63,595 nt of DNA, from the sequence record MK373795.1, one strand, 5' to 3'. Within the stretch, counting starts at the first letter, position 1; each line of letters starts with the position of its first letter. Positions 24,130 to 27,611 of this stretch are shown here, piece by piece. The translations under genes were made by a program, and so were the position numbers. Under the pieces are notes generated by a model. The model did not search any database. It was given only the letters and a program-made list of their open reading frames with translations, and was not told where the DNA came from. The stretch is from Escherichia phage vB_EcoS_HdSG1.

Positions 24130-27100
24130 ATGCCACCAGCAATAATTGGAGCTGTAGTTGCTATCGGTGCAGCGGCTGGTGCAGCGGCAGGTATTATCAC
24201 AGCCACTACCGCGCTTGTGATTGGTATTGCTGCCAGTGCTGCTGGAGCTCTACTTACAAAAACTCAGAGTTATAACTTTGACTCCTATACACCTCAGAGT
24301 GAGCGTAAACAGGTTATTCGTGCCGCTGCTGCATCCAGGACAGTGATTTATGGAACGACTGTATCCAGTGGTGTTCTTGTATTTGCAGAAGAAGAACCTG
24401 GAGTACAGGATCCAGATAAACATGGTGAGAACTACGAGAAGTTGACTCTCGTATTGGCATTAGCCGGACACGAACTGACCGAAGTAGGACAAGTGTGGTT
24501 AGGGGACGATCCAATAGGTACTTATGCTGGAAACGCATCCTATAAGGTGTACAACAACCCTACTACGGTCAGTCAAGACATGTTGAATCGTTGCCCATCA
24601 TGGAAAAGGGACATGATTGGTAAAGGTATCTGCTGGATGCAATTGAATCTAGTATATGATTCACAGAAGTTCCCAGCTGGGCTTCCTAATGTCAAATGTG
24701 TTAAGAAGGGGCGAAAAGTTCTAGACCCTAGAACTGGTCAGATGGTGTTTAGCAATAATGCCGCCCTTGTGATTTTGGACTATCTTCGAGTGTATCTTAA
24801 ACGCGGAGACGATTCAATTCTTTGGGACCAGTTCAAAGAGGCCGCTAACATATGTGATGAAAGAGTTAAGAACGCAGATGACACGTTTGAATCCCGGTAT
24901 ACTATCAACGGGGAATTTGACATGGATGAAGCACCTTCCAAGATCCTGGAAGACATGCTTGACGCTTGCGGTGGGGAGTTGACTTATATCGGCGGTAAGC
25001 ATGGTATTCTGGTAGGTGCATATTACGGGCCTCCGGAATTAACTTTGGATACGAGTTGCATTGCTGGTGACATTAAAATCACACCAGAGACAGCTTTTAA
25101 AGATCGAACTAATACAATCACAGGTACTTACATCGATCCTCTGCAAAACTATCAAGAAGCAGACTTCCCGTCTGTAAGTGTTTCTGAATGGGTACAGCAA
25201 GACGGTCAAGAGATTACACAAGACGTCGATTATCGTTTTGTCACAAGCCCATATCAGGCTCAACGTCTAGCTAACTTGACGTTGAAACGCAAACGTATTG
25301 GTCGTTCCATCGAGATACCATGTAACATGCGTGGGTATCGTTTCCGTCCAGGTATGTATGTCTACGTTGACATTCCTAATATTGGAATGAACAAAGTAGA
25401 GATGCGTGTTATTAAGTGGCAGTTTGATCCGAAAGGTGGTGTCACTGTAACTGTACGTCAAGACTTCCCGGACTTATGGGACGATGCAATTGGTAAACCT
25501 GTAGAGCGGCCAGATCTAGTGGATCTGCCTACTGGTGGTGCTATGCAACCTCAGAATCTACAGTATGAAGTCTTACAGATTAGCGACGTTGTACAGGGTG
25601 TTCTGTCGTGGCAAAATATAATGGCTGTAGCCTACAACAACGTAGTAATTAAGAAAGATGGTACTACCGTATTGACGGTGCAAGTACCGGGGCAGAGCAC
25701 GCGGATTACGGGACTTATTCGCGGCGCTTATACAGCACATGTGAAAGCTGTGGCGTACACCGGCGCAACAAGCCCAGAAGCGTATCTTGAATTCAATATT
25801 CAAGCACCATCTGCTCCTACGTCTGTTGAAGTAACGCAAGGCTACTTCGCAGTGACATTGAAACCAAAATCTGCGGATCTGGCGAACGTTAGTACACAAT
25901 ATGATTTCTGGACGTCTGGTGAAACAAGATTACCATCCGCCGCTGTAGACGTTGTAGAACGACAGGCCACCCGTGCTGGTATGGGTACAACATGGACTTC
26001 GGAAGGGTTGCTCAATGACCACACTTATTACTGGTACGTGCGAGCAATTAATGCGTTCGGTTCATCAGCATTCATAGAAGTAGCTGCAAGATGCTTCACA
26101 GATGCTGCTGGCCTTATTCCGCAGATTGACACAGAGTTCAAAGGTACTAACACCTATAAAGAACTTATGGCTGAGATTGGAAGCGTCAGCGATGGTGTTA
26201 AGAGTTATGTGGACAACCAAATTGAAACCTCTGAAGGGCGCTTAACTCAAACAATAGATACAGTACAACAATCTGTAGTTCTTGTTGACGGTAAAGTGCA
26301 GCAACAGGGCGTCACAATCAATGAACAGGGGCAGTTAATAGATGCTCAAGGTAAGTTGATCGAGACAAACGGCCAACAGATTAATGTGGTCAAAGCTACC
26401 GTACAGGAAGTCAGTAAGTCCGTTGTGGATCTTGAAGGTAACGTCAACGCTCAGTGGGGTGCCAAGATCCAGGTAGATAGTAAAGGTCAAAAATACGTTG
26501 CCGGTATTCAGTTAGGTATGGAAGGTTCCGGTGGAGCCATTCAATCTTACTTTATGGTCAACGCCAACAACTTCGCTATCTATAACCCAACTAACAGCAC
26601 AGCGGATTTAGCATTTGCAGTTAAAAACGGTCAAGTGTTCATGAAGGCAGCGTTCATTGAGAACGGTTCTATTGATAATGCTAAGATCGGTAACTATATT
26701 CAATCTAACAACTATGTAGCTGGTTCTGCAGGCTGGAAGTTGAATAAAGCTGGGGATGCTGAACTGAATAATGTTGTCGTGAGGGGTACGGTATATGCCA
26801 CAAACGGTAGATTCACAGGCGAGATACAAGCAACTAGTGGGACATTTAAAGGTACAGTTGAAGCAAGTAGATTTATCGGGGATGTAGTCGCAATCTATAC
26901 TTTCCCAGATATATTAAGTATAGGTACGGATATTTCCGGTGAGCAATATAAAGTATACACTTATAATGACTCGTCATCCTCCCCACAAGCAAGATCTGTT
27001 GTATTTGATTGTATAGTGAGAACTACAAATACTACAAATGGATATAAATTAAAACTAACATTAGCAGGTCAATATAGGGAATATGTATTCTATCAAACTA

Positions 27101-27258
27101 ATACTATGATTCCTATAAAATTCGGAGTAAGTGGAGTTACAACACGTAGTATACAACTGATTCTGGATACAGATAGGGGTAGTGGTACACATATAGATAT
27201 AATAGCACCGACATTAACAATAGGGAGAGCTAGTGGTACTTTCACTGTAAGTGGATAA
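24130..27258 (+). CDS. tail tip / host specificity protein (J-like)
   Basis: 1042 aa; N-terminal Gly/Ala-rich hydrophobic segment, large beta-rich body, position after K-like gene. Confidence 0.65.
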   Translation: MPPAIIGAVVAIGAAAGAAAGIITATTALVIGIAASAAGALLTKTQSYNFDSYTPQSERKQVIRAAAASRTVIYGTTVSSGVLVFAEEEPGVQDPDKHGENYEKLTLVLALAGHELTEVGQVWLGDDPIGTYAGNASYKVYNNPTTVSQDMLNRCPSWKRDMIGKGICWMQLNLVYDSQKFPAGLPNVKCVKKGRKVLDPRTGQMVFSNNAALVILDYLRVYLKRGDDSILWDQFKEAANICDERVKNADDTFESRYTINGEFDMDEAPSKILEDMLDACGGELTYIGGKHGILVGAYYGPPELTLDTSCIAGDIKITPETAFKDRTNTITGTYIDPLQNYQEADFPSVSVSEWVQQDGQEITQDVDYRFVTSPYQAQRLANLTLKRKRIGRSIEIPCNMRGYRFRPGMYVYVDIPNIGMNKVEMRVIKWQFDPKGGVTVTVRQDFPDLWDDAIGKPVERPDLVDLPTGGAMQPQNLQYEVLQISDVVQGVLSWQNIMAVAYNNVVIKKDGTTVLTVQVPGQSTRITGLIRGAYTAHVKAVAYTGATSPEAYLEFNIQAPSAPTSVEVTQGYFAVTLKPKSADLANVSTQYDFWTSGETRLPSAAVDVVERQATRAGMGTTWTSEGLLNDHTYYWYVRAINAFGSSAFIEVAARCFTDAAGLIPQIDTEFKGTNTYKELMAEIGSVSDGVKSYVDNQIETSEGRLTQTIDTVQQSVVLVDGKVQQQGVTINEQGQLIDAQGKLIETNGQQINVVKATVQEVSKSVVDLEGNVNAQWGAKIQVDSKGQKYVAGIQLGMEGSGGAIQSYFMVNANNFAIYNPTNSTADLAFAVKNGQVFMKAAFIENGSIDNAKIGNYIQSNNYVAGSAGWKLNKAGDAELNNVVVRGTVYATNGRFTGEIQATSGTFKGTVEASRFIGDVVAIYTFPDILSIGTDISGEQYKVYTYNDSSSSPQARSVVFDCIVRTTNTTNGYKLKLTLAGQYREYVFYQTNTMIPIKFGVSGVTTRSIQLILDTDRGSGTHIDIIAPTLTIGRASGTFTVSG

Positions 27259-27293
27259 AAAATAGGCGCTCTATCGAGCGCCTATAATTTATT
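27256..27293. terminator. bidirectional terminator between convergent genes
   Basis: ATAGGCGCTC / GAGCGCCTAT 10-bp stem flanked by A-run and T-rich run. Confidence 0.7.
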
Positions 27294-27594
27294 TACAACC
27301 TTCAGACCAACCAACACGGTTCATAGCCGGTGAGCAATCAGGTTTGACTTTTTTACCTTTCATCCACTCAGCTTTAGCTTTACCAGCGGTAGTACCTTCG
27401 TAGATGGAAGTCTGGTGCTCAATGTTACTTACTCCACCAGTATGCCCTCCTAATGATGAACCACTACCAGGACCACCAGCTCCACCATTACCAGCTCCAC
27501 CATTACCTGGACCACCAGTACCACCGGAAGGACCAGTCGCGTAAGCAAACGTAGCAGTCATAGAAAGGATAATGGCGCAGATTAAAGTCTTCAT
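27289..27594 (-). CDS. secreted Gly-rich protein (superinfection-exclusion candidate)
   Basis: ATG 27594 with RBS AAAGGAG; signal peptide MKTLICAIILSMTATFAYA; Gly-rich region; two C-terminal Cys; antisense inside tail module. Confidence 0.6.
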   Translation of the reverse strand: MKTLICAIILSMTATFAYATGPSGGTGGPGNGGAGNGGAGGPGSGSSLGGHTGGVSNIEHQTSIYEGTTAGKAKAEWMKGKKVKPDCSPAMNRVGWSEGCK

Positions 27595-27611
27595 TTCGAA
27601 CTCCTTTATGT

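Follow-up and report, generated by a model that had tools for sequence, protein, structure and literature searches.

A small exported-type protein encoded beside the gpJ receptor-binding domain of Escherichia phage vB_EcoS_HdSG1 as a candidate receptor-silencing exclusion factor

The window analyzed here, which is the whole 63,595-nt stretch of Escherichia phage vB_EcoS_HdSG1 DNA in sequence record MK373795.1, contains on its minus strand a small gene that is convergent with the gene of the tail tip protein gpJ and encodes a protein of 101 residues. On balance, this small protein is somewhat more likely than not a soluble factor of the periplasm that puts the receptor of JenK1-type phages out of action and in this way brings about superinfection exclusion. 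The reading builds on direct observations of the reality of the gene and the constraint on it, the architecture of its export signal, its transcriptional autonomy, its synteny, and its association with a receptor-binding domain of gpJ.

In the proposed mechanism, the small protein would be exported by Sec and cleaved by signal peptidase I to give a soluble periplasmic protein of ~8 kDa and pI 9.1, in which a flexible, Gly-rich linker at the N-terminus precedes the 48-residue core. This protein would bind the periplasmic side of the outer-membrane protein recognized by the adjacent gpJ C-terminal domain and make this receptor unusable, with two consequences: superinfecting phages of the same receptor class would be excluded, and progeny would not be wasted on the debris of lysed cells. 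Such an action would be like that of Llp on FhuA and of Rtp45 on LptD, here without a lipid anchor, with the small protein gripping a conserved periplasmic feature of the host protein while the external phage contacts undergo an arms race. Cells that carry the small gene on a prophage or an IncX1 plasmid would be protected by it against such phages. We infer the periplasmic location, the disulfide, the receptor binding, and the exclusion phenotype of the small protein from the comparisons described below.

Association with the gpJ receptor-binding domain

Close homologs among sequenced phages were found only in JenK1, HdK1, ESCO3, and PD328. Others are present in metagenomic contigs, both Nonagvirus-like (~60 kb) and T1-like (~50 kb, with the small gene between J and recE/erf), and in lambdoid prophages of E. 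coli chromosomes, where they are rare (3 of 5,426 complete genomes). In every one of the 20 phage and prophage loci with close homologs, the small gene is convergent with gpJ and lies 27-41 nt from the gpJ stop codon (31 nt in the window), and gpJ ends in a single family of distal domain, ~125 residues long and with the motif ...PT[ML]xIxR[GAS]SG[ST]F[ST]. Apart from this domain, the tails encoded at the 20 loci are entirely different, with tape measures of the TMP_3, TMP_2/Tape_meas_lam_C, or HK97_TLTM types and J proteins of 1,009 to 1,333 residues. T1 J is without this distal domain, and in TLS J and lambda J the similarity is confined to the conserved stretch that precedes it. Transfer of the receptor from TLS, which uses TolC, was also considered and was rejected, the TLS J distal domain being unrelated and only the preceding ~45 residues being common. 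A gpJ end of the E. coli phage type and a small gene with a core ~98% identical were also found on a 2.7-kb contig assigned to a Gram-positive acidophile ("Sulfoacidibacillus thermotolerans" contig63, NZ_MPDK01000063.1, locus L025); its presence in that assembly is almost certainly a contamination.

The gpJ distal domains beside the small gene fall into at least five classes with mutual identities of 25-45%, and the adjoining small-protein cores are 85-100% identical. Domain classes and small-gene subtypes also reassort, with the metagenomic phage L013 combining a PD328-class domain with the 77-residue subtype, and locus L026 carrying a JenK1-class domain on a lambda-type J. When the window was compared by blastn with three prophage loci (L003-L005), the shared DNA (27289..27767, 90.6% identity) was found to begin exactly at the small-gene stop codon, to span the intergenic region, and to end 87 nt into the side-fiber gene. 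On account of this breakpoint and the reassortment, strict co-inheritance of the small gene and a particular gpJ domain as one cassette was rejected. As far as the compared loci indicate, the small gene is an independently mobile unit, yet one always kept beside this family of gpJ receptor-binding domains. The core remaining near-constant while the receptor-binding domains diverge and recombine fits a conserved host target, and not a phage part.

The position of the small gene has close counterparts in relatives. In T1, J is followed by ST32 and ST31 (the receptor-binding locus), a terminator, and then cor (29623..29850) on the minus strand and convergent; the small gene has the slot and orientation of T1 cor. 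In 9g (Nonagvirus) and KurtStettler/Bas22 (Seuratvirus), a 77-residue lipoprotein is encoded in the identical slot and orientation (mutual identity 83%), and in Enterobacter phage AS5 a 57%-identical lipoprotein is encoded in the equivalent slot. The gpJ distal domains of 9g and Bas22 belong to the same family as that of the window and are 39-44% identical to it. Bas22 was shown by complementation to be LamB-dependent (PMC8594841, S10 Fig), and the 9g gp69/Bas22_0021/AS5 family is probably a LamB-directed exclusion lipoprotein. By these comparisons, the slot after gpJ is a cassette site, and the small exported proteins encoded in it change in step with the host-recognition determinants.

Two further occupants of this slot were noted. 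Salmonella phage vB_GS166 (PV090993.1) has, directly after gpJ, an unannotated 89-codon open reading frame (ORF) with a signal peptide and two cysteines (L018 2942..3211, minus strand); it is unrelated in sequence to the window protein, homology between the two not being supported by comparison, and is a further candidate for the same functional slot. FritzHoffmann/Bas20, an LptD-dependent Nonagvirus, has a 321-codon gene (L030 2890..3855, minus strand) in the slot after a shorter gpJ of 925 residues, with no small exclusion gene annotated alongside; its product is presumably an LptD-binding protein.

The locus itself has been connected with host recognition in several studies. The BASEL work ascribed receptor specificity to the locus that follows gpJ in Drexlerviridae, Dhillonvirus, Nonagvirus, and Seuratvirus, and earlier work cited there suggested that dedicated binding proteins and cognate exclusion proteins are encoded at that locus; JenK1, HdK1, and HdsG1 were set apart as having a distinct allele that matches no known receptor (PMC8594841). 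A follow-up study stated that small siphoviruses encode receptor-binding proteins and exclusion factors at this locus, with Cor and Llp disabling receptors and thereby sparing the loss of progeny on debris (PMC11990801). Cryo-electron microscopy showed the 6-kDa lipoprotein Rtp45 to bind the periplasmic side of LptDE and to distort its external loops, and Llp was reported to act similarly on FhuA (PMC12685063). Finally, a 2026 preprint ties the distal gpJ domains themselves to LamB, TolC, or NupG specificity (10.64898/2026.04.02.716166). The initial annotation had argued from the position of the small gene beside receptor-binding genes; that argument now stands on firmer ground than it was given, considering the T1 cor slot, the 9g and Bas22 lipoproteins, the literature on the locus, and the tie to the gpJ domain family.

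The gene, its expression signals and its product

The 101-codon minus-strand gene first proposed from the ORF list is real, as borne out by its reading frame, its homologs, and a ratio of non-synonymous to synonymous substitution rates (dN/dS) of 0.02-0.07. The ATG at 27594 is the start codon and 27289-27291 the stop codon; the ORF list also gives a longer, TTG-started version (27289..27624), and every homolog starts at the MK... that matches 27594. The JenK1 ortholog gp21 carries the annotation "hypothetical". In the independently annotated, 96%-identical HdK1, the ortholog HdK1rev_00044 is the only minus-strand coding sequence between 3536 and 34297, in line with the earlier statement that the small gene is the sole minus-strand gene of the rightward block. 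The left neighbor, gpJ (24130..27258), has the Pfam domains Phage_Tail_Tip and Ig_J_second, and the right neighbor, the side tail fiber gene (27681..), has phage_tail_N, so that the location between tail tip gene and side tail fiber gene was also correctly assigned. Comparisons of the window with the divergent loci L013, L015, and L017 gave, wherever dS was computable, a dN/dS of ~0.02-0.07 in the last 48 codons, with synonymous sites near saturation (proportion of differing synonymous sites, pS, 0.65-0.82) and non-synonymous differences of 3-11%. Judged by these substitution patterns, the gene is tightly constrained by very strong purifying selection.

Coordinates of the gene and of the features discussed are given in Table 1. 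The strong ribosome-binding site claimed initially was found, and is conserved in the nucleotide alignment. A claim of promoter-like elements fared less evenly: the minus-strand sigma-70-like promoter is present, but the scan found four promoter-like sites in the region against 4.3 expected from shuffled sequence, which is not above chance, so that the scan alone is weak evidence and conservation was relied on instead. Indeed, the intergenic region is near-identical in JenK1, PD328, the lambdoid prophages, and the metagenomic phage L013, with the TTTACA/TATAGT promoter the same in all of them; in the divergent relative L017, an independently formed TTGACA-17-TATGGT lies at the equivalent position. 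The predicted bidirectional terminator corresponds to a hairpin between gpJ and the small gene; terminator-like sites number five in the surrounding 2 kb against 1.2 expected, and the depositors of HdK1 annotated a terminator at the equivalent place. The small gene has the marks of a moron, with promoter-like and terminator-like sites of its own, a patchy presence among relatives, and a homology breakpoint at the gene border. It is, as these signals predict, a self-contained promoter-gene-terminator transcription unit with a host-type promoter.

Table 1. Location of the small gene, its signals and protein regions, and related features (window positions unless a locus is named)
Feature	Position	Strand	Description
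Small gene, coding sequence	27289..27594	-	101 codons plus stop; ortholog of JenK1 gp21 and HdK1rev_00044; member of phrog_2243
Ribosome-binding site	27601..27606	-	AAGGAG, 6 nt upstream of the ATG
Sigma-70-like promoter	27624..27653	-	-35 TTTACA (27648-27653), 18-nt spacer, -10 TATAGT (27624-27629); 10 of 12 matches
Bidirectional intrinsic terminator	27262..27285	both	10-bp stem with 6 G-C pairs, loop of 4, T-runs on both strands; serves gpJ and the convergent small gene
Signal peptide, residues 1-19 (predicted)	27538..27594	-	MKTLICAIILSMTATFAYA, followed by TG; signal-peptidase-I type without lipobox
Gly-rich low-complexity linker, residues 20-53	27436..27537	-	34 residues, 53% Gly
15-nt tandem repeat	27475..27523		3.3 copies encoding (GNGGA)n; Tandem Repeats Finder score 70, 85% matches, no indels
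Conserved 48-residue core	27292..27435	-	GVSNIEHQTSIYEGTTAGKAKAEWMKGKKVKPDCSPAMNRVGWSEGCK; 85-100% identical across loci
Core cysteines	Cys87 27334-27336, Cys100 27295-27297	-	C-x12-C spacing
gpJ distal C-terminal receptor-binding domain	26860..27258	+	Last ~130 residues, ending ...APTLTIGRASGTFTVSG; partner feature beside the small gene in every close phage/prophage locus
Side tail fiber gene, 5' end	27681..27767	+	Belongs to a 479-nt block that also spans the small gene and the intergenic region; 90.6% identity to lambdoid prophages
9g gp69 / Bas22_0021 / AS5 lipoproteins	L031 3240..3473, L032 3349..3582, L019 2715..2951	-	57-83% identical; lipoboxes LTAC, LSAC, VVGC

The small protein begins with K2 and hydrophobic residues 3-16 (mean Kyte-Doolittle hydropathy 2.07), followed by a cleavage site between AYA and T, and thus shows the n-, h-, and c-region features of the cleavable Sec-type signal peptide that had been proposed. 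With small residues at positions -3 and -1, a protein secreted via Sec and signal peptidase I is predicted. The sequence of the signal peptide turns over fully between lineages (MKTLICAIILSMTATFAYA, MKKVVYAVALSLATFAVNA, MKKSIAIFAVISALMCAPSFA, and others), and its layout persists across homologs, with a basic N-terminus, a hydrophobic stretch, and an AxA-type site in most of the members shown. A lipobox is lacking from the window protein and from every sequence of the two protein alignments; Cys6 in the signal peptide (context TLIC) is too near the N-terminus for a lipobox and is not conserved.

The Gly-rich region had been put forward as a key feature of the protein. Its presence was confirmed, but it is better seen as a dispensable linker than as the functional core. 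The window has one unit of the 15-nt repeat more than JenK1 and HdK1, linker length differs among homologs (proteins of 101, 96, 92, 88, 84, or 72 residues), and the homologs of 77-80 residues have ~10 polar residues instead of a Gly-rich linker, this variability and loss being what suggests a dispensable spacer. The core that follows has the consensus GVSNIExQTxIYExTxAGKxxAEWMKGKxVKPDCSPAMNRVGWSEGCK and is basic (pI 9.1). Its two conserved cysteines are the C-terminal Cys pair noted at the outset, and Cys87 and Cys100 probably form a disulfide loop. AlphaFold2 modeling gave a mean predicted local distance difference test score (pLDDT) of 52.5 for the full-length protein and, with a more diverse alignment, 60.6 for a 52-residue core, with three short helices; the core is probably helical according to these models, which are of low confidence.

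Relation to known families and alternative explanations

In family searches, the small protein matched phrog_2243 of PHROGs (function unassigned) with an E-value of 4.2e-28, residues 1-101 aligning to profile positions 3-86 of 87. Homologous protein clusters number 54, and an exhaustive profile search of 1.84 billion cluster representatives matched seven, indicative of a narrow family without a host homolog. A faint co-linear resemblance to the gp69-type lipoproteins was seen, as were resemblances of GWSE to the colicin TolB box and of QTSIYE to a TonB box, which were dropped as too short to be meaningful. By sequence comparison, the small protein constitutes a separate family, outside the Cor, Llp, Rtp45, and gp69-type families.

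Several observations weigh against a role in receptor silencing. Scans of the small protein against Pfam, NCBIfam, and PADLOC returned nothing or sub-threshold noise. When its profile was run against every Protein Data Bank chain (E<=10), among which the Llp and Rtp45 chains are assumed to be present from the cited depositions, the only matches were ovotransferrin and a tail-fiber chain, both irrelevant. Homology to Cor was rejected, hhalign against T1 Cor aligning only 13 signal-peptide residues at a probability of 23%, as was homology to the 9g gp69 lipoprotein family, for which hhalign gave a probability of 5% with a single sequence and 2% profile to profile, and blastp gave no match. Structure prediction was of low confidence throughout (pLDDT 52-61). 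The small protein has, on its sequence, no lipobox, whereas every characterized factor of the locus (Cor, Llp, Rtp45, and SE-Oeko) is a lipoprotein, and its variable Gly-rich linker is not accounted for by the proposal. Among the five gpJ domain classes found with the small gene, distances are as great as those that separate them from the LamB-type domains accompanied by a different small protein, and a one-protein-one-receptor logic is for that reason not demonstrated. Lambda has lom, an unrelated moron, in the same J-stf interval, so that position alone is no proof. In the literature on JenK1, HdsG1, ESCO3, and PD328, no receptor or exclusion data were found.

Similarities to the known receptor-silencing proteins are accompanied in each case by a clear difference. 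The small protein shares with Cor (T1, phi80, and N15; acting on FhuA) the character of a small exported protein (75-101 residues) encoded on the opposite strand, with a terminator shared with the end of the tail operon, and T1-like relatives carry the small-protein family exactly in the cor position, between J and recE. However, Cor is a lipoprotein (lipobox LTGC), unlike the small protein with its signal-peptidase-I site, and T1 has a separate receptor-binding locus between J and cor, unlike the window, in which the binding domain is the J C-terminus. The genes of Rtp45 (phage Rtp; LptD) and Llp (T5; FhuA) also adjoin the receptor-binding gene, Rtp45 likewise has a disulfide, and their mode of action is the one proposed for the small protein, in which a very small periplasmic protein occupies the receptor from the periplasmic face and so keeps the phage from binding outside (PMC12685063); both are lipid-anchored, unlike the small protein, which is predicted to be soluble. 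The 9g gp69/Bas22_0021/AS5 family has the identical slot, orientation, and size class in sister Queuovirinae and the same gpJ domain family beside it, but consists of lipoproteins, tied in Bas22 to LamB dependence. Taken with these analogs, the small protein is probably a new non-lipoprotein exclusion factor, and its family, not characterized before, occupies a known functional slot.

T4 Spackle is a soluble, Sec-exported periplasmic protein of a virulent phage that acts against superinfection, and the small protein resembles it in being small, Sec-exported, predicted to be soluble, and encoded by virulent phages. Unlike the small gene, the Spackle gene is not located beside a receptor-binding gene, and its product inhibits the tail lysozyme gp5 and not a receptor. 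Spackle and HK97 gp15 both exclude after adsorption, and an analogous block—of genome passage through the periplasm or inner membrane, by inhibition of the tail tip or tape measure or by occupation of a host entry factor, instead of receptor masking—is an alternative for the small protein. The product being soluble, free of a lipobox, and predicted to be periplasmic, like T4 Sp, would suit such a block, as would a core extremely conserved despite the variable adjoining receptor-binding domains, and the copies on conjugative plasmids are compatible with a generic barrier to DNA entry. However, an ejection-directed factor should follow tape measures and tail tips, whereas the small gene follows the gpJ domain family across unrelated ones, which favors action on the receptor over a block of DNA transit; the profile search of the Protein Data Bank also gave no relevant match. 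We regard a post-adsorption block as improbable.

The autonomous promoter-gene-terminator unit between J and the side tail fiber genes is also a feature of lambda lom and other morons, and a second alternative, to which we give the same low standing, is that the small gene is a generic moron altering the host envelope for some purpose other than exclusion (stress or serum resistance, adhesion, or aggregation), as with lom or bor, and on plasmids an accessory of a YadA-like adhesin. Its own promoter and terminator, its insertion between tail genes in only some relatives, the presence of lom in the same J-stf interval, and the position on IncX1 plasmids after a YadA-like autotransporter gene, with which it is probably co-transcribed, are all consistent with this. 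But the lom gene shares the strand of J, and its product, an outer-membrane beta-barrel, has a function related to lysogeny, unlike the small gene, which is kept in virulent phages. A dN/dS of 0.02-0.07 in the strictly virulent Nonagvirus and T1-like phages, where lysogenic conversion is meaningless, argues against a purely lysogenic-conversion role. The invariable position beside the receptor-binding end of gpJ and the carriage by only 3 of 5,426 complete E. coli genomes also weigh against a generic moron.

That the small protein helps to build or assemble the tail tip or the side fibers, for which the location within the tail module and the inclusion of the side tail fiber 5' end in the prophage-shared block might speak, is very unlikely: a cleavable Sec signal would remove the product from the cytoplasm, where tails are assembled, and this signal, the opposite strand with its host-type promoter, and the copies on plasmids without tail genes argue against a virion role, as does the finding that in T1-like loci the neighbors are recE and erf and not a fiber gene. 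Least plausible of all is a bacteriocin- or microcin-like secreted peptide, since a superficial likeness of residues 20-53 (by composition) and of the C-x12-C loop to colicin V and weak sub-threshold NCBIfam matches to Gly-rich families are set against a Sec signal in place of a double-glycine leader, the lack of an exporter or immunity gene nearby, and a Gly-rich part missing in many homologs, the conserved part being the Lys-rich core.

Plasmid copies, genome setting and significance

In PLSDB, 69 plasmids encode a core with 73% identity; 62 of these are conjugative, and their hosts are E. coli, Salmonella, Citrobacter, and Shigella. On the inspected backbones of IncX1 or IncX1-like type, the gene order is TrbM/KikA, YadA-like trimeric autotransporter, small gene, nuclease or DUF6012 gene, and topoisomerase. 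Over the last 86 nt of the small gene, plasmid and window DNA are 84-85% identical, suggesting a fairly recent exchange between phages and plasmids. The small gene on these plasmids is probably co-transcribed with the autotransporter gene. The YadA-like protein is short on IncX1-type plasmids, with 411-540 residues (L008 5743..6978, L033 837..2459), and no role for it was found in the literature. In a Salmonella plasmid contig (AAABVI010000042.1; L007 8001..8228), one protein, P0054, has first ~40 residues that match the YadA-like N-terminus and a C-terminus that is the small-protein core, and from its sequence looks like a deletion fusion.

Entry-exclusion genes usually sit between the VirB6-type and VirB8 genes. 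In L007, this interval contains small unannotated ORFs, and the small gene lies outside it; a canonical plasmid entry exclusion is thus an unlikely function for the IncX1 copies. That the plasmid small gene is linked to the neighboring adhesin and provides self-exclusion during mating is speculative. TraT of F-like plasmids is exported, confers surface exclusion, and blocks OmpA-specific phages, and offers a conceptual parallel for the IncX1 copies beside the YadA-like adhesin gene; unlike the small protein, it is a surface-exposed outer-membrane lipoprotein of ~25 kDa, and the two are unrelated in sequence.

The window represents a complete Nonagvirus genome (Queuovirinae) of the JenK1/HdK1 type, with 92-97% identity to JenK1, HdK1, and ESCO3 in the region around the small gene. 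Its positions 1..3363 recur exactly at 60233..63595 (offset 60,232), an exact 3,363-base recurrence that points to a single 60.2-kb genome plus wrap-around; a long terminal repeat is an alternative. In the gpJ distal domain (26900..27258), the GC content is 0.31-0.37, versus 0.42-0.46 upstream, and this drop fits horizontal acquisition of that domain. The side tail fiber gene consists in the window of two overlapping ORFs (27681..29750 and 29692..31398), with the break at a G7 run near 29737-29743, whereas JenK1 has a single gene of 1,220 codons; the HdK1 gene is likewise split, at a different place. A sequencing error, a pseudogene, or slippage-prone phase variation may explain the break at the G7 run.

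Receptor silencing lets virulent siphophages avoid wasting progeny, and lets prophages and plasmids immunize their hosts. The mechanistically studied proteins of this kind are few (Cor, Llp, and Rtp45), and all are lipoproteins. In the widest interpretation, which by analogy is conceivable but doubtful, the siphophage host-recognition locus would have in the small protein its first receptor-silencing family that is soluble and not lipid-anchored; it would act on the E. coli outer-membrane receptor of JenK1/HdK1-type phages and be carried as a mobile cassette common to virulent phages, lambdoid prophages, and IncX1 conjugative plasmids, and on the plasmids it might have a second, TraT-like role in mating, as a surface-exclusion factor or a blocker of self-recognition. 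Constraint on the family is extreme, and virulent phages, prophages, and IncX1 plasmids exchange it. If this soluble family does silence a receptor, silencing would be seen to work without a lipid anchor, and the small protein would be a bait for finding the receptor of the JenK1/HdK1/HdsG1 group. Furthermore, the plasmid copies could then protect E. coli and Salmonella that bear IncX1 plasmids against one class of phages considered for therapy.

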